Shown in pieces: positions 2,991-26,615 of a stretch of DNA of 26,615 nucleotides. Origin of the DNA: Chiloscyllium plagiosum (Eukaryota); assembly GCF_004010195.1 (NCBI RefSeq), contig NC_057718.1, positions 83,222,669 to 83,249,283 on the forward strand. Reading direction: 5' to 3'. Position numbers and translations under genes: made by a program. Below the pieces are notes generated by a model. It made no database searches. It worked only from the letters and a program-made list of their open reading frames with translations, and was not told the origin of the DNA. Position 1 is the stretch's first letter. Each line of letters begins with the position of its first letter.

Positions 2991-3369
2991 AAATAATACT
3001 AACAGACCATTTAATTGCAAATTGCTTCTATTGTTCTTTTCTGGTGAGTTAATTTTCCTTCTTGCTTAATAAAGTTGAAAAGTGTTCTTCAGGATTAATT
3101 TCAATTTAGTAATAAAGTCCGATTTAAACAAGCACAATTGTGTTGGGGAAATTCTATTGAGTAAAACATCTTAAAAAAAGAATATTTCATGATTACAAGA
3201 AGTGCAACTGTGTAGACATGTTCTTAAGTGCTCTGGTTGTGTATGAAGACAAATATTTTTTGCTATTACTGTTTTCCTAATGACACCAACATCAGCAAAT
3301 TGAACACAATGTGAAAAGAATGCATCAATGAACTTCTATTTACTGCCAATATCAAAGAATACAAAGTCA

Positions 3370-3722
<353 letters not shown>

Positions 3723-9949: not shown

Positions 9950-10115
9950 GCACATCAGCTTTCCTTCCCTAAGCGATATTAGTTTACAACAATCAACAAT
10001 GGTTACATAGCGCTATTAGACTATATTTTAATTCCAGATTTGTGGAATTCTAATTTCATCATCTGCCTTGATGGATTTTAACCCATGGTCACAGAACAGT
10101 AGCCTTGGTCGCTGG

Positions 10116-11426
10116 TGTAACCCCTTGTTCAAGAAAGGATCAAGGCAAAAGATGGAAAATTATAGGCCAATTAGCCTAACCTCGGTTGTTGGTAGAAGTC
10201 TAGAATCCATCATTAAGGATGAGGTTTCTAAATTCTTGGAAGAGCAGGGTCGGATTAGAACAAGTCAACATGGATTTAGTAAGGGGAGGTCGTGCCTGAC
10301 AAACCTGTTGGAGTTCTTTGAAGAGGTGACAAGTAGGTTACACCAGGGAAACCCAGTGGATGTTATCTACCTAGACTTCCAAAAGGCCTTTGATATGGTG
10401 CCACACGGGAGTGTTCGAGGTGAGCTACTGGAATGGATTGAGGATTGGCTGTCTGACAGAAGGCAGAGAGATGGGATAAAAGGTTCTTTTTCGGAATGGC
10501 AGCCAGTGACNNNNNNNNNNNNNNNNNNNNNNNNNNNNNNNNNNNNNNNNNNNNNNNNNNNNNNNNNNNNNNNNNNNNNNNNNNNNNNNNNNNNNNNNNN
10601 NNNNNNNNNNNNNNNNNNNNNNNNNNNNNNNNNNNNNNNNNNNNNNNNNNNNNNNNNNNNNNNNNNNNNNNNNNNTAAACGGTGAGAAAATTTGTAAAGC
10701 CAAAGTACAGAGGGATCTGGGAGTGCTAGTTGAGGATTCTCTAAAGGTAAACATGCAGGTTGAGTCCGTGATTAAGAAAGCGAATGCAATGTTGTCAATT
10801 ATCTCAAGAGGGTTAGAATATAAAAGCACTGAGTTGTGCTACTGAGACTTTATAAAGCTCTGGTTAGGCCCCATTTGGAGTACTGTGTCCAGTTTTGGTC
10901 CCCACACCTCAGGAAGGACATACTGGCACTCGAGCGTGTCCAGCGGAGATTCACACGGATGATCCCTGGAATGATAGGTCTAACATTTGAGGAACGGCTG
11001 AGGATTCTGGGATTGTATTCATTGGAGTTTAGAAGATTAAGGGGAGATCTAATAGAAACTTACAAGATAATACATGGCTTGGAGAGGGTGGATGCTAGGA
11101 CATTGTTTCCGTTAGGCGAGGAGACTAGGACCCGTGGACACAGCCTTAGAATTAGAGGGGGTAAATTCAGAACAGAAATGCAGAGACATTTCTTCAGCCA
11201 GAGAGTGGTGGGCCTGTGGAATTCATTGCCACAGAGTGCAGTGGAGGCTGGGACGCTAAATGTCTTCAAGGCAGAAATTGATAAATTCTTGATGTCACAA
11301 GGAATTAAGGGCTACGGGGAGAATGCGGGTAAGTGGAGTTGAAATGCCCATCAGCCATGATTGAATGGCGGAGTGGACTCGATGGGCCGAATGGCCTTAC
11401 TTCCGCTACTATGTCTTATGGTCTTA
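10116..11426 (+). mobile_element. Young 5'-truncated CR1 LINE (RT domain to 3' end; contains N gap)
   Basis: PLFKKG...NYRPISLTSVVG...SQHGF...YLDFQKAFD (ORF 10068-10685) and intact C-terminal ORF 10836-11342 LYKALVRPHLEYCVQFWSP...GKWS*; UTR ending atgtcttatggtctt. Confidence 0.92.
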
Positions 11427-12929: not shown

Positions 12930-13385
12930 GATTTTAAAACCGTTTTGGTCACCATAGTCAAGAACCATTCAGGGATTCTTGAGGTTGTAGAGGAGATTTA
13001 CAGAATAGTTTGGGATGATGGATTTTACGCAGGTTGGAAAAGCTGTCATTGATCTTCTTGATGCAAAATGATTCAGGAGAGATATAATAGGGGCTAACAA
13101 AATTACGACAAATTTAAATGGTTGTTGGAAGATACAAGGAACACAGATTTAAGGCTTTTGGAAGAGAAATGGGGGTATTAGGCAGAACTTTCTTTTTTAA
13201 ACACCCAAAGAGTAATGACCTGGATCTGTGTTTTATAGGGGAGGTGAAGCAGAACCGTCAATAATTTCGAAAGAAAAACGGATGTGCCCTTGACGAACAA
13301 ACATTTTGCAGAGTTAGTGAGATAGGGCAGGAGAAGGGACTGGATTGCTACACAGACAGCCAGCATGGTCTCGAATGGCTCAGTA
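12930..13385 (+). mobile_element. Degenerate CR1 3' end
   Basis: gttgtagaggagatttacagaat (VQRRFTR-like), acacagatttaagg (HRFK), UTR gacagccagcatgg...gaatggc. Confidence 0.65.
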
Positions 13386-13665
13386 ATGAGTCTAGGTCGC
13401 TTTGATGAACCAAACTTGGTTTGGGAGAACTAGGTACCTTTCCTTCATCCACAGAAACAGGTAAACAGAATACAGTATTACACTATCCAGTAATATCACC
13501 AGAAGACACAGTGATGAGAGGAACAAGTAATATTACCTAAATATCTGGATGGATCCGCCAAAAACAGTATTGCGGTGGTGAGTAGCAAGTCTGAACACAG
13601 AAGTGTGTGTTTTTCTGTCAGCCACATAAAGACAGTGTAGGTTTAAAAATGCACGCAGTGATTAA

Positions 13666-18250: not shown

Positions 18251-19164
18251 TGAGTTACTTCAACTCCTCAGAGTGTATTTCAGGTAAAGTTCAGTAATTT
18301 GGAGCCTTAATGTTGTGTGTGATTTGGAATGAACCCATGGTTTTCTGTTTATTCTGACATAAATGCTGTCTTCTTTTACAATCAAAATATTGCCGCCATC
18401 TACTTCCAACATTCCTCCATTGTTAGGATACCATAATTCATGTTTTTTTTCTGCTTCTCTAATATTCTTCCTGCCTCCTCTCATCTAGAAATTCTATTAC
18501 ATTCAGATGCTGCTAATTACGTCTTTACCAGCTTTAAGCACCACACATCCATCACCCAGCTCTTGCCAGGATCTTTGTTGTTACTTCCACGGACAAACCT
18601 ACACTAAGCTTCAGCTGCTTGTTTCTTTTCAAATCCTCTGTATTTTGAAAATAGTCTGCTCTTATTCACCATTCTTTCAACTTCAGTTCAAGTCAACATT
18701 TCTGTGCCTTCTGGAACATTCTTAAATCCCATCCCTTCAAATTTCTTCCCAGTGATTTTGAAACAGCCTGCACCCATCCCTTCTGTCAGCTAGGTGTCCA
18801 TTTGTTGTTCTTCCCTTTATTAATTGCCTGGAGATAGCTTTCTGGTAAAACTGTAGTTTTGAAATGTTGCTACCACTGCTGTTTACATGGTTAGGTTATG
18901 CTAGTCATTATCAAGGCAGATGGGAATAAGAAAGTGCACTCAGACTATATATCCACTCCTGTTAGCATTCAGATGTTCCTTATGGGGAAATAAAAAGCTT
19001 TTTTTTAAAAGAAAGATTGTTTTGTGTGAACCTATTACTTACAAGATAATACTTTAGAACTATTAAAAGTAGGTTTCCTCACTGTGAAGAGTTTAGTAAA
19101 AGGTCCAGACCAGATATAAATGATTATACCTCTGAAAGGATTATTTCAGGCCAAGAAAGGGTCA

Positions 19165-20136
19165 CGACGTACTGAGGTTCTACCTGTCCCCGGTGTTGCA
19201 AAGGATGGGCCTGGCCTCGCTGCCGTGGAATGCTCCGAGTAGTTGCACCGTTCCGTATCACCTGTCCTCCGTGGAGAAATTTATGAAGAAAAACACCTTT
19301 AACCACAAGTCCACCAGGAAGTGGTCAGCACATAGTGTCCTTGAGACCCTTCGGGAAAAGGAAAGGGTGGATCCTATCGAGTGGTTCCCTGAGCAGACTG
19401 TCAAAGCCATTTGGCAGAATGCCTCATCGCCAGAACTTTCCAACAAGCACCAAGACATGGCTTGGCTGGTGGTGAGAAGGGCTCTGCCTGTGAGATTGTT
19501 TATTCACGCCCGGACTCTCTGCTGCACCGCAAGCTGCCCTCGAAGCGACTGCGGGGGGGAACGAGACTGTCACACACCTCCTTTTGGAATGTGCCTACGC
19601 AGAAGAAGTCTGGAGAGGAATGCAGTGGTGTTTGTCGAGGTTCGTCCCAAGCAGCGCCGTGACGCGGGACTCCGTGCTCTACGGTCTGTTCCCCGGGACG
19701 CACACCGAGACGAACATCAACTGTGCCTGGAGGATCATCAACTCGGTCAAAGACGCTTTCTGGGTGGTCCGAAACCTGTTGATCTTCCAGCTGAAGGGGT
19801 TGACCCCGACTGAGTGTTGCGGACTGGCACTTTCCAAGATCCAGGGCTACGTGTTGAGGGATGCGCTGAAGCTTGGGGCAGCTGCCGCCAAGGCGCGGTG
19901 GGGAAAGACCACCGTGTTACGTCTGCCTGCCAAAGAACAGGGGTCCCACGCAGTAAGGGGGCTCCGCTGACACCTCAGCTAAATATATGGATAGTAAATG
20001 TACAGACCTGTATATATGAATGATACTCGATCTCTGTATGCAAAGAAATGGAATGTTTATATATGTATGGCATGACCAATTGTACAGATCATCAAAGTAT
20101 TTTATGAATAAAGTATATTTTTGAATAAAAAATATT
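19165..20136 (+). mobile_element. 5'-truncated Tx1-clade non-LTR retrotransposon (ORF2 C-terminus + 3' UTR), relatively young
   Basis: ORFs 19193-19813 and 19584-19970 join with one frameshift near the G run at 19553-19560: ...LSNKHQDMAWLVVRRALPVR...CPRSDCGG-ETVTHLLLEC... (zf-RVT CCHC); CpG-rich; AATAAA and A tail at 20107-20132; candidate TSD AGGGTCA at 19158-19164 and 20137-20143. Confidence 0.82.
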
Positions 20137-21763: not shown

Positions 21764-22175
21764 TGTGGGGAAAATCACCAGTCACGGAGTCAGATTCTGG
21801 ATTCAATGACAGAGTTTATTGTCCAAAGAAACCAGAGCTCCAGAGAGAGACAGAGAGACGTCCGGCAGCACAGCTGTCAGCTGCGAGCCTTCTCTCACCC
21901 TCGGAACACATGTCATGATATTTTATACATTTCATGGTATAATGGTCCAAATATCGAGTCTTTGTTTGTACAGTATGGTTTGTTTACAGAAAACATTATA
22001 GAGTCATTGTCAGTTTCAGAGAATGTTAGAGTCATTGTCATTTTTAGCAGCTACGTGGAAGTCCATTGCTGCAGTAATTGGTCATGGTTATTCTTCCTGA
22101 GAAGGAAGATCGTTTTCCATTACTGCAAATCGAAGGTATTAACACTTGTGTACAAGCAGTCTCAGGTAGTTAACA
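21764..22175 (-). mobile_element. 3' LTR of endogenous retrovirus (412 bp)
   Basis: Minus strand starts TGTTAAC directly after a polypurine tract and ends CCCCACA (TGT...ACA); TATAAAA at 21921-21927; AATAAA at 21815-21820; 14-bp direct repeat in U3 (21999-22012, 22027-22040); lies downstream of env. Confidence 0.85.
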
Positions 22176-22187
22176 TTTCTCTCCCCC
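22176..22187 (-). other. Polypurine tract of the ERV
   Basis: GGGGGAGAGAAA on the minus strand immediately 5' of the LTR-initiating TG. Confidence 0.8.
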
Positions 22188-22471
22188 ACCTGCCTTAACC
22201 TAATTATCTATGTTCTGTTTCTATCATGTTGGTATTCTGCTGGCCTCAGACAGTATCTGTGTATGCTTTGCTGTACTTTTCCTCATAATGCCTCAGTGGC
22301 CATCTTGTATGCCAAGTGACCAACTTATGACTCAGCGGCCATCTTGTGTCTGTGTGCCCCATGTCAGCATACCCGGTGTCAAACCCCGCTTCACTCCCCA
22401 TTTGTGGTCAAGGAGGTGACTTCAGAGACCTCCATAAGACCACTCAACTCACATATAGAGGTATGCCTTTT

Positions 22472-23821
22472 CTAAGGTCTCCCCATCCCAAGGGGTGTCA
22501 AGGAGTCCGAGTTTCGCTGGGGGCTCTTCTTTGTGACACTTGCTTCTGGCATGGCCCACATCAGTAGCACCTTACAGCAAAGCTTTAAACACCCAAGGCC
22601 TCGGCAGAGTGAAATAAGGAGAACAATCCCGTGTGCTAAATAGTGTTTCCAGGATTTGCCTATCAGCCATTCTAGCCAGCTATCTCCTCCTGTGGCTTCT
22701 TGTCTGAAGGCATCTAGCTGGTCCTGAATGTTTTTTGATCACCTATGTAATATTGTAAGATTCATCAATGACATAGGATATACAGTTGTCACCAATGATG
22801 GTACATACTCCCCCTTGCTGGACTAACTGATAATCTACCACGTAACATGTCTGCTGTGTGTAAAGTCTGAGTTCAGCTAATTCACCACTGATTGCTTCTA
22901 GAGCCTTTGATGTATTGTTCCCTAAGATTGTCAATCCACACACAATATCGTTCTGGTTTTAGCCCTGATGACCCCTGCTGACTGCCCTCCAAAGACAGAG
23001 ATCCCAAAAACCCATACCACAATGATGATCCCAGCGTGGTGGGGATCTGCCAGTCAGCGCAGAATTCCCAGCTGATGGATCAGGTCACTATCCTTCACAA
23101 ACATGTCCCCCGCTGGGGCAGGATATAGTGAGGGGTCTGATTGTTCCTACTGCAAAAAGTTTCGGGAGGTTTGGTTTGTCAGTAGCACAAATCCCCTTAA
23201 ATAAGAAAATAAATCCCTCCGCTGCCCGATAGCATACAGTGTCCTGTTTCTGGGTCTGTTTGACTACCCATCTCACCTGACTCCCCATTTGTTCCCACCA
23301 GCTGGTAGATATCAAACAGGTGTGTCCATATGGCAGAGCCGATGTGAGTGCCATTGTCCGCATATAAACTGCCTTCCCATGGTCACGTTCAAGCATGCCT
23401 GCTCACTGATTGTACAGTGCTAGTGAGTACATTGTGTCTGCACGCATGAACTGTTTCTAGATAGCAGGGCATAAACACATCCCCATCCCTGCCCTGTGAA
23501 ACAGAGTGGGTAATCAGTGATCTTTTAAAGGTCTTTCTCTCCCCCTGTTGGGGTGCCCCGTGGGCTTGACTAATTCCACACACCTACCCTGGAGTTCCCT
23601 TTTGTATTTTCTTAGCTGTCCCTTACATGGCGTGCCCAAGGTATCTATTGTATGTAATTGCGAGGGGTTCACACATGGGTGATCACAAATAAAGATTGGA
23701 CCGATCGCGCCAGTGGGTAACAGAGTTCGGTTCCCATGTAAATTTAGGTGGGTTTTGTAAAAGAGGTTATCCTCAAATCCCAACCGGCTTCTGGCTATCA
23801 GAGCATTTAGGAACAGTAATA
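22472..23821 (-). pseudogene. env: Retroviral env relic (SU + TM), several stops and frameshifts; 5' end in the N gap
   Basis: TM heptad and ISD-like segment LEAISGELAELRLYTQQTCYVVDYQLVQQGGVCTIIGDNCISYV (ORF 22743-22943); fusion-peptide-like GSSLWYGFLGSLSL upstream in another frame; after a frameshift, Trp-rich DSWLEWLIGKSWKHY, hydrophobic anchor LAHGIVLLISLC and Cys-rich tail GCLKLCC ending at TAG 22472-22474. SU pieces in ORFs 23088-23396 and 23514-23821. Confidence 0.88.
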
Positions 23822-24321: not shown

Positions 24322-24763
24322 TTAATCACTGCGTGCATTTTTAAACCTACACTGTCTTTATGTGGCTGACAGAAAACACACACACTTCTGTGTTCAGACT
24401 TGCTACTCACCACCGCAATATTGTTTTTGGCGGATCCATCCAGATATTTAGGTAATATTACTTGTTCCGCTCATCACTGTGTCTTCTGGTGATATTACTG
24501 GATAGTGTAATACTGTATTCTGTTTACCTGTTTCTGTGGATGAAGGAAAGGTACCTCGTTCTCCCAAACCAAGTTTGGTTCATCAAAGCGACCTAGACTC
24601 ATTACTGAGCCGTTCGAGACCATGCTGGCTGTCTGTGTAGCAATCCAGTCCTTTCTCCTGCCCTATCTCACTAACTCTGCAAAATGTTTGTTCCGTCAAG
24701 GGCACATCCGTTTTTCTTTCGAAATTATTGACGGCTCTGCTTCACCTCCCCTATAAAACACAG
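24322..24763 (-). repeat. Inverted copy of 13226-13665
   Basis: Reverse complement aligns over ~440 bp with about 6 substitutions and 2 one-base indels by eye; left end abuts the N gap, right end joins ERV integrase. Confidence 0.95.
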
Positions 24764-25273
24764 CTTGGCCTTGGTTGGTGTCCCATCCTAACGTTTATGG
24801 GTCTACCTGGGTTGCCCTGTGCACAAACTGTGCATCTGCGGCAGTATTTGGCTGTATCTCTTCCCATTCCCTTCCATCACCACTCTCTCCCTAGATTTGC
24901 TATCATTGCTTCCCTGCCTGTAGGTGAGAGCCCGTGGTGCAGTTCGAACAAGGTGCTACCACCTTGTCTGCTTGCCTCAAGACCCCATCCTCCCCTTTAA
25001 GAGCTCCCTACCTTTTCCATCTCTCTCTTTCTCTTCCTGCAGGGTGTCCTCCTATAGCTGCGATGTGAATGGCATCTTCTACTCGTTCAATTGTTATTGG
25101 AACTTCATCAATGGTTTCCTGCTCTAAGCCTCGTAGGGCTGCTTGGTCTGCAGCTTGGTCCCCTTTAAATTGCAACCAGCCAGGACTAGCTTTCCCCGGC
25201 TCCTTTTTTGCGCTTTGATTTTTATTATTGCAGCCTCTTCTGGCAGTTCGCTGGTGCTCAACAGTGCTTGGAT
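24764..25273 (-). pseudogene. pol: Retroviral pol relic: RNase H C-terminus, linker and integrase N-terminal Zn-binding domain
   Basis: Across frameshifts: IQALLSTSELPEEAAIIKIKAQK / KEPGKASPGWLQFKGDQAADQAALRG (RNase H IIKxKAH...GNxxAD-type end) and FELHHGLSPTGREAMIANLGREW*WKGMGRDTAKYCRRCTVCAQGNPGRPINVRMGHQPRP (HHCC domain, second His apparently mutated to Pro). Confidence 0.85.
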
Positions 25274-25274
25274 T

Positions 25275-26615
25275 CTTTTTGTTTTGTAAATATATGTATT
25301 TGCAAATTTTTTTAACTTTACAAACAGATAAAATTATTGAAAAATACAATAATAAAAACAAAAAAACCCCACAAATTACAATCCAAATACTGTCTACCAA
25401 CTACTAACTTACCCTATAATACAAACAAACCCTAACATTGTGCAAAGCAACACCAAAAAAAAGAAAGAAAAGCACCAAAAACAAATAAAAAACCACAAAA
25501 TACAGAACAGCTATGCTTGGCGCAAAGCTCCCAAACAAAGGAACAGGAGCATTGTATATAAACCCCTATTAACTCAGGAGACCCCCCCTCTAGGGCCCAG
25601 GGGTTGACAAATCTAACCAACCTGGTTAGACAAACGCCCTCGTTAGGATAACTGACAAAGCTATATCCAAATAACTCAAGTAGGGCTGCCATGTCTTATA
25701 AAAATGCTCTGTTGTGTGGTGCACCATGTTTGTGAAAGGTCGAAGGGAATGTGCTCCATAATTAATTTCTGCCATCCCAGCCAGCCCGGCGGGTTCTCAG
25801 ACATCCAATTCATCATAATATTCTTCCGTGCACAGTGTGCAAGAATATTAAATAGTTTCTTCCCATGCCTGTCTAAAGGTGGTAAATTTGGTAAGAAGAG
25901 AGATAAAGGGCCTACTTTGACTTCAATCCTCAATACGCTCCCTATCTCTCCCCCCACAGCGCTCCAATAAAAACGGAGCCTGTGGCATGTCCAGAAGCAA
26001 TGGGTAAGAGTACCTACACTTATTTTACATTTGGGGCATACTGAAGATGCCCCTTTTTTAAACTTCGCCAGACGGTCTGGTGCCAGATGAGCCCTGTGCA
26101 GAACTTTTAATTAGCGCATGTCCTATTACAGATTGAGATCTTTCAAGTATTCTCCCATATGTTCTCCCATGTTTCAGAAGAGATCTCCACTCCTAGCTCT
26201 TGCTCCCATACCTCACATAACCAGTTAATATCCTGCCAGGCCCTGCCACCCAGCAGGCGATAGAGGGCACTAACCGAAAGGTGCTTGTGGAACGTAGCAA
26301 CCACCTCTCTGTATCGGGCTTATAGGGCTTAGTGAGAAGCATAGTCTTCTTCTGGATGAAATCCCTAACCTGAAGAAAATGGAAAAGGTCTCTGCTGGGT
26401 AACCCGTATTTGCGGCTCAGTTGCTCTAAAGACATCATAACCTCCCCCTCAAACAAGTCTCCCAAACTAGAAACTCCTCTCGCTGCCCATAGTTTGAACC
26501 CTGAGTCCATCATCCCTGGTCTGAACCCTGACATGCCAACTATAGGTGTAAGTGGCGAAGTCTTGGATAAACAACCCTCTCTGTGACGCATCGCCCTCCA
26601 TGCCTTGACTGTACT
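25275..26615 (-). mobile_element. L1-clade LINE 3' end (ORF2 C-terminus, 3' UTR, A-rich tail) inserted into ERV pol
   Basis: FKLWAARGVSSLGDLFEGEVMMSLEQLSRKYGLPSRDLFHFLQVRDFI typical of fish-type L1 ORF2; CCHC knuckle CPKCKISVGTLTHCFWTC; C-terminus FYKTWQPYLSY...AFV* (stop 25626-25628); T-rich UTR; tail aaaacaaaaagaa abutting pol. Runs off the window. Confidence 0.85.

Follow-up and report, generated by a model that had tools for sequence, protein, structure and literature searches.

A shark ERV envelope with an ISD but without the third TM cysteine: a probable SU-internal disulfide in place of the SU-TM bond

A decayed env gene of an endogenous retrovirus (ERV) in the shark Chiloscyllium plagiosum encodes a TM subunit in which Ile stands at the place of the third Cys of the CX6CC motif, directly downstream of an ISD-like stretch. 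We consider it probable, at roughly two chances in three, that an intra-SU disulfide has replaced the SU-TM disulfide in this family, so that the two subunits would associate non-covalently; the distribution of the cysteines is observed, and the pairing and the effects on entry are what this distribution would suggest.

The window, that is, the whole stretch of DNA analyzed, comprises 26,615 nucleotides of contig NC_057718.1 (assembly GCF_004010195.1, forward-strand positions 83,222,669 to 83,249,283). In a tblastn search, the database homolog P0001 matched the env locus with residues 21-387 on 23780-22737 and residues 389-458 on 22732-22535 (E-value 1e-78). The locus and the C-terminal part of its TM are as follows:

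22475..23821, minus strand: decayed env of a class I-like ERV, with several stops and frameshifts (tblastn, translations)
22806..22856, minus strand: ISD-like stretch, 17 residues long, that departs from the ISD at positions 1, 3, 7 and 10 (translation, alignment)
22779..22805, minus strand: CX6C-Ile, the cysteine loop of TM, in which the third (intersubunit) Cys is missing (translation, 30 loci)
22580..22757, minus strand: HR2, membrane-proximal region and TM membrane anchor, limits approximate (translation, tblastn)

In the minus-strand translation, Cys codons at 22805 and 22784 enclose six residues and are followed at 22781 by an Ile codon (ATA), which differs from TGT and TGC at all three bases; the ISD-like TM peptide with CX6C-I that a preliminary description of this DNA had placed at 22779-22856 was confirmed. 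With the position numbering of PMC11575397, Q2, R4, D8 and the Gly pair of the ISD are conserved in the shark/ray clade, while positions 1, 3, 7 and 10 differ. The stretch lies directly before the TM cysteine motif, which is where the gamma-type (MLV-like) criterion places an ISD. Position 3 is Thr in 15 of 22 members of the window's subclade, where 93 of the 111 other gamma-type Envs have Asn, and position 10, seven residues away and on the trimer-axis face, is Gln in 11 of the 22; possibly, a polar core layer has shifted by one heptad in this subclade.

The missing Cys is a property of the family. Of 215 candidates in a DNA search of the same genome, 40 were scored, and these gave at least 42 matches; the 30 best loci were compared, including the window and a pair (L011 and L014) that may be one locus assembled twice. 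Among these 30, the codon after the second Cys was ATA in 26 and ATT, GTA, AAA and CAA in one each, the CAA belonging to an indel-shifted copy, and a Cys codon was found in none. With Ile at 27 of the 30 loci and no sister carrying CX6CC, the motif is fixed among the paralogous copies, and the earlier claim that the Ile is unlikely to be a product of post-insertion decay held up, with ATA at 26 loci. A tree of 146 rows, from which 8 proteins without the TM motif, short hits and near-duplicates had been left out, contained the third Cys in 0 of the 23 rows of the shark/ray clade; 110 other rows had CX6CC. The same Env without the third Cys is encoded by open reading frames from Pristiophorus, Heterodontus, Rhincodon, Scyliorhinus and Mobula in the databases. 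Judged from these sequences, CX6C-I is an ancestral trait of the ERV family.

The third Cys was substituted rather than deleted, since the distance from the second Cys to N-I-T is the same as in filovirus GP2; loss of one Cys by deletion is excluded by this register. An extra Cys inside the ISD was considered as a relocated third Cys and rejected, since it is present in only 8 of the 30 copies. In nine further copies the site holds His and in another nine Arg, a mixture that would point to CpG decay.

A sister provirus of about 8.6 kb (L031, G000:C25:36320500-36330400) has a gag zinc knuckle and RT motifs. Its LTRs are 85% identical over 391 bases, which indicates that the family is old, and stops in all but one or two of the 80 best protein matches show that the family is dead in its own genome. 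Further parts of the provirus in the window are:

21764..22393, minus strand: 3' LTR (approximate), aligned with the 5' LTR region of L031 (687 columns, 77% identity)
about 22394-22402, minus strand: polypurine tract, before the 3' LTR
24764..25277, minus strand: pol fragment, matching five of eight sister regions (78-82% identity)

By its motifs, we take the pol fragment to be the RNase H end and the integrase zinc-finger region. Between pol and env, an insert at 24322-24763 (about 440 bases beside the gap) is unmatched in the sister proviruses and repeats 13226-13665 in inverted orientation at 98% identity, with no other genome matches; it is likely to stem from an error of assembly or from local rearrangement. 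Elsewhere in the window, an exon-like ORF at 3367-3624 (minus strand) encodes the N-terminus of a CDK-like kinase, presumably of the CDKL type, and ORF fragments at 10032-11342, 19136-19970 and 25676-26615, amid many SINE-like repeats, are presumably LINE reverse-transcriptase ORF-like.

The SU subunit contains the cysteines on which our reading turns:

23757..23774, minus strand: start of mature SU, N-terminal helix (alignment; helix 35-44 in the P0007 model)
23711..23725, minus strand: single Cys of SU strand 1 (C-Y-P), putative counterpart of the TM-bonding Cys in ALV and filoviruses
23351..23365, minus strand: mid-SU CXXC site, with a frameshifting break in the window copy; CGQC in sisters
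23112..23126, minus strand: C-terminal Cys of SU, in a C-P motif; proposed to have become the partner of the strand-1 Cys
23083..23094, minus strand: predicted SU/TM cleavage region RIVT, without a canonical furin site (aligned to the basic sites of P0016 and P0018)

The strand-1 Cys, a single Cys after the first helix, is present in 19 of 22 readable loci and in all 14 database SUs; its spacing and the preceding helix suggest that it is positionally homologous to the Cys of ALV SU and filovirus GP1. The C-terminal Cys was found in 16 of 20 readable loci and likewise in 14 of 14 database SUs. In ALV and filoviruses, the N-terminal SU Cys bonds the third TM Cys, and in models of gamma-type Envs strand 1 forms one sheet together with the final strand of SU and the strand of CX6CC (bioRxiv 2023.10.07.561363). 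Since strands 1 and 12 share this sheet in the models described there, the strand-1 and C-terminal Cys of the shark Env would be neighbors.

The presence of the C-terminal Cys follows the combination of a retained strand-1 Cys and an absent third TM Cys. A Cys no more than 19 residues from the SU end was found in 13 of 15 Envs from the shark clade, Mab-Env2 and Tapajos virus GP, as compared to 2 of 74 others, counts that represent about three lineages and hence not independent events. By group, such a Cys is present in 11 of 13 shark-clade proteins and in both Mab-Env2 and Tapajos GP, as compared to 2 of 67 other gamma-type Envs, none of three ALV-like Envs (our label for P0105 from a turtle, P0110 and P0124) and none of four Envs from a second lizard lineage. 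One of the two shark-clade misses has a non-homologous N-terminus, and the other has a Cys 21 residues upstream. Two full-length filovirus GPs with the third TM Cys have no Cys at the matching place in GP1. The second lizard lineage (P0081 from Anolis, P0108, P0139, P0142) has neither the third TM Cys nor the strand-1 or C-terminal Cys of SU, so that the three sites vary as expected for one bond; from its sequences, this lineage probably arrived at a non-covalent Env independently. These four are its full-length members, and P0045, P0060 and P0102 belong to it as well; the lineage combines fusion-loop Cys and an ISD with the absence of the third TM Cys, and has CFCC in SU.

We propose that the strand-1 Cys, once freed of its TM partner, would pair with the extra C-terminal Cys of SU, and that this intra-SU bond would replace the SU-TM disulfide and leave SU held on TM non-covalently. 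The four Cys of the TM ectodomain would pair as in filovirus GP2, two in the fusion loop and two in the CX6C loop, with none left for SU. Entry would then proceed without a step of disulfide isomerization or reduction, and the ISD helix would be retained for trimer packing and contact with SU.

The same set of cysteines was identified in three other glycoproteins. Syncytin-Mab1 (P0181) and Mab-Env2 of Mabuya and Tapajos virus GP (P0037) share with the shark Env the strand-1 Cys, the C-P motif at the SU C-terminus, the fusion-loop Cys pair and a two-Cys TM loop without the third Cys. In P0181, the strand-1 and C-terminal SU Cys are Cys42 and Cys238. They differ in having CX7C-L instead of CX6C-I, with about 23-24% identity to P0001, and have a different mid-SU domain and furin-type basic sites of their own. 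By its database name, the title of the work of Cornelis et al. in 2017 and PMC12813294, syncytin-Mab1 is a fusogenic syncytin. By analogy with syncytin-Mab1 and Tapajos virus GP, the design without the third Cys appears to be viable. A CX5-7C motif has been cited for the Mab-Envs (PMC12813294).

The preliminary description had reported no CXXC in the readable pieces of SU and had named a CXXC in the consensus SU or in its gap-covered end as something that would refute its reading. The reported absence was not confirmed, since sister copies carry CGQC in mid-SU, with both cysteines in 9 of the 16 sister loci readable at both positions and in 9 of 14 database SUs. CGQC is literally a CXXC, but not at the isomerase position, and we do not read it as an MLV-type isomerase because it is located mid-SU, is polar and is missing from five of 14 relatives, which likewise have no third TM Cys. 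A hydrophobic CWxC-type motif was found in 0 of 17 full-length Envs without the third Cys and in 43 of 58 with CX6CC. A CXXC concealed under the gap was excluded: the N-terminus of mature SU is readable from 23774, so that the gap can hide at most part of the signal peptide. The absence of CXXC was a mistaken criterion, since the Envs of alpharetroviruses and filoviruses are covalent without it (PMC9967133, PMC11575397).

SU and TM could still be linked covalently by a rewired bond, from the C-terminal SU Cys or a spare Cys of CGQC to a fusion-loop Cys of TM, which we regard as unlikely but not negligible. In P0001, the C-terminal SU Cys is located 20 residues from the first TM Cys, and the window's own subfamily is odd in its number of SU Cys (15 or 17 in seven of the nine CXXC-bearing database proteins), which leaves one spare Cys that could bond elsewhere. 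The counts are even in syncytin-Mab1 (12), Mab-Env2 (12), Tapajos GP (18), P0006 (16), P0010 (12) and P0166 (14), but parity is a weak guide because two ALV-like Envs with CX6CC are even as well. A bond to the fusion loop would either leave an unpaired TM Cys or require two swapped bonds; moreover, the fusion-loop pair keeps its filovirus-like spacing in lineages with and without a C-terminal Cys, and five of the 14 relatives lack the second CGQC Cys. In Scyliorhinus torazame, Envs of the same class form a 52-member cluster with open frames of 664 aa (P0166, P0168, P0010) and have an additional Cys-rich N-terminal domain before the SU core.

Alternatively, the subunits may be held non-covalently with a different pairing inside SU, the strand-1 Cys being free or bonded to another SU Cys and the C-terminal Cys being partnered differently. 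In the alignment of 14 SUs, six Cys columns show no variation, so that conservation alone does not single out the proposed pair from several further cysteines conserved equally, and ALV SU reportedly retains an unpaired Cys (PMC9967133). However, only the C-terminal Cys tracks the combination of a strand-1 Cys present and a third TM Cys absent across lineages, and we judge a different pairing to be a little less probable again than the rewired bond. The bond between the strand-1 and C-terminal Cys remains our preferred reading.

Two further features of the TM subunit precede the ISD:

22932..23067, minus strand: internal fusion loop between two Cys (23050-23067 and 22932-22946), hydrophobic core at about 22990-23013, frameshifted in this copy
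22908..22922, minus strand: N-glycan sequon where HR1 begins, as is typical for the TM of avian gamma-type Envs and filoviruses (alignment, PMC3758190)

One fusion-loop Cys is retained in 17 of 19 readable loci and the other in 22 of 24, and all 17 full-length Envs without the third Cys have an internal Cys-flanked loop rather than an N-terminal fusion peptide. The equivalent of the HR1 sequon in P0001 is N327. A window TM fragment of 71 residues matched filovirus GP2 with an E-value of 2e-9, as compared to 0.22 for syncytin-1. When a family profile was compared to the PDB, filovirus GP2 came first, with the top 32 matches at E-values of 1e-22 to 1e-16, followed by syncytin-2, snake arenavirus GP2, ASLV TM and MLV TM, and no beta-type TM was among the 57 PDB sequences at E <= 0.1. 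The likeness to GP2 is continuous through HR1, the ISD, the loop and HR2.

In a tree of 41 rows, filovirus GP2 was placed beside the shark clade with a support of 90/71, unstarred, and mammalian filovirus GPs nest among the shark/ray, Mabuya and Tapajos lineages in the best tree. AU tests reject neither a grouping of filoviruses with ALV-like Envs nor a single clade of all Envs without the third Cys (both p 0.194). The tree rows all come from searches with P0001 or its alignment and are biased towards P0001, and the trees were built without ALV, MLV, reptarenavirus and beta-type rows.

SU was examined with structure models. The full-length AlphaFold2 model of P0001 had a pLDDT of 45 and was not used. 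The model of P0007, a natural SU-only protein, had a mean pLDDT of 63 and is unreliable around the two proposed partner cysteines (blocks of 40-57 and 36-60). In a comparison to 48,161 chains, where Z-scores below 8 may mean a common fold only, its top eight matches were all filovirus GP1 (Z 4.5-6.6, 93-103 residues, rmsd 3.1-4.8), followed by syncytin-2 SU (Z 3.9) and gp120 chains (Z 2.1-2.9). Foldseek against the PDB also had filovirus GP1 chains on top, none of them significant (E >= 0.3); BFVD gave nothing at E <= 0.001 and the ESM Atlas no usable match, and a Pfam search with three SU or tail fragments gave no family besides a chance match. The model ranking suggests that the kinship of shark ERVs with filoviruses may reach beyond TM into SU/GP1.

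The preliminary description had suggested a hybrid architecture; it is very unlikely that the shark Env is such a hybrid in the sense of a recombinant of a gamma-type Env, contributing the ISD, and a non-covalent beta-type Env, contributing the CXnC. CXnC without a third Cys is a beta-type signature (PMC3758190), Pfam GP41 matches P0001 at an E-value of 0.2 and gp120 chains appear in the fold comparison. But the profile search ranked filovirus GP2 first and listed no beta-type TM at E <= 0.1, the GP2 likeness is unbroken from HR1 to HR2, and GP1 stands above gp120 in the model ranking. In addition, the RT of the sister provirus, a single fragment of 152 aa compared to solved RTs (no epsilon or snakehead reference among them), is closest to MLV (E-value 1.6e-21; foamy virus 9e-15). 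The GP2 ranking, the Cys-flanked fusion loop and the HR1 sequon argue for an avian gamma-type/filovirus-like Env without the third Cys. What stands of the earlier interpretation is that CX6C-I is ancestral, with no third Cys at any of the 30 loci, and that the SU-TM association is likely non-covalent; what is not supported is the gamma/beta hybrid. Post-insertion decay or a sequencing error in a normal CX6CC can be dismissed, for all the heavy decay of the window copy, given Ile at 27 and Cys at 0 of 30 loci and the same state in the open reading frames of the five shark and ray species named above.

Beta-type Envs of betaretroviruses and lentiviruses share with the shark Env the two-Cys TM loop and the predicted non-covalent SU-TM association, but no TM similarity to them was detected at E <= 0.1, and the ISD and fusion-loop Cys are present in the shark Env; the likeness is probably convergent. 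With avian gamma-type Envs (ALV/RSV) and filovirus GP, the shark Env has in common the ISD, the Cys-flanked internal fusion peptide and the HR1 N-glycan (Henzy and Johnson, 2013, PMC3758190), as well as a single N-terminal SU Cys in place of the isomerase CXXC (PMC3758190). It differs from them in the absence of the third Cys of CX6CC, in the extra C-terminal SU Cys and in ISD positions 1, 3, 7 and 10. As the avian gamma-type is defined by CX6CC along with the Cys-flanked internal fusion loop and the HR1 sequon (PMC3758190), the shark Env would work like and descend with the avian gamma-type/filovirus-like type but, for want of CX6CC, is not a member as defined.

The SU/TM junctions RIVT-R, RIVA-R and RLVA-R (window; P0001, P0002, P0005, P0006, P0010) lack the P4 Arg of a furin site, and P0016 and P0018 have canonical furin sites at this junction. 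By sequence, the non-furin junctions resemble SKI-1/S1P sites such as RRLL (PMC7926653) and are candidates for processing by S1P.

Parts of this picture are already in print. Ectodomains of cartilaginous-fish ERVs have been placed as a sister group to ebola-, marburg-, cueva- and dianlovirus GP with a posterior of 0.83 (Nino Barreat and Katzourakis, 2024, PMC11521997), in agreement with the support of 90/71 in our tree for shark and ray ERV TM as closest to filovirus GP2. That study groups the Mabuya Env and Tapajos GP nearby, and its supplement contains ATY46612.1 (P0022 here); the words cysteine, disulfide, covalent and GP1 do not occur in its main text. A CXnC subtype, that is, two-Cys variants of CX6CC, has been described among gamma-type Envs of anamniotes, fish as well as amphibians, in a survey that covered cartilaginous fish and still classed all CXnC Envs as covalent (Chen et al., bioRxiv 10.1101/2021.11.23.469661); in the available text of that survey, we found no examination of SU cysteines. 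The filovirus kinship (PMC11521997) and, for fish Envs of the gamma type, the variants with two Cys (bioRxiv 2021.11.23.469661) have thus been published, whereas neither the matched change in SU nor what it implies for the ISD rule was found in the papers searched. Neither the SU C-terminal Cys nor a non-covalent reading of the shark/ray clade was found in the literature searched, which lay largely outside subscription journals.

In the published descriptions, the link between the ISD and CX6CC is called invariant (PMC11575397, PMC9967133). If our reading is true, the Envs described here would depart from the published rule by which an ISD always accompanies an SU-TM link, and would challenge the view of non-covalent Envs as mammal-only. 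Speculatively, and with the odds clearly against it, the Envs of sharks, rays, Mabuya lizards and Tapajos virus might constitute a third class of orthoretroviral Env, ISD-bearing, GP1/GP2-like and non-covalent, in which SU would be locked by its internal disulfide in a state that MLV reaches only after receptor-triggered isomerization. This class might be ancestral to an envelope that filoviruses captured whole, SU together with TM, with the GP1-GP2 bond of Ebola virus regained; the nesting of mammalian filovirus GPs among lineages without the third Cys in the best tree is the reason why it may represent the ancestral state of the captured envelope. A recognizable ISD without the third Cys is present even in a domesticated syncytin and in a present-day filovirus glycoprotein, and its retention there would provide a natural test of the purpose of the ISD.
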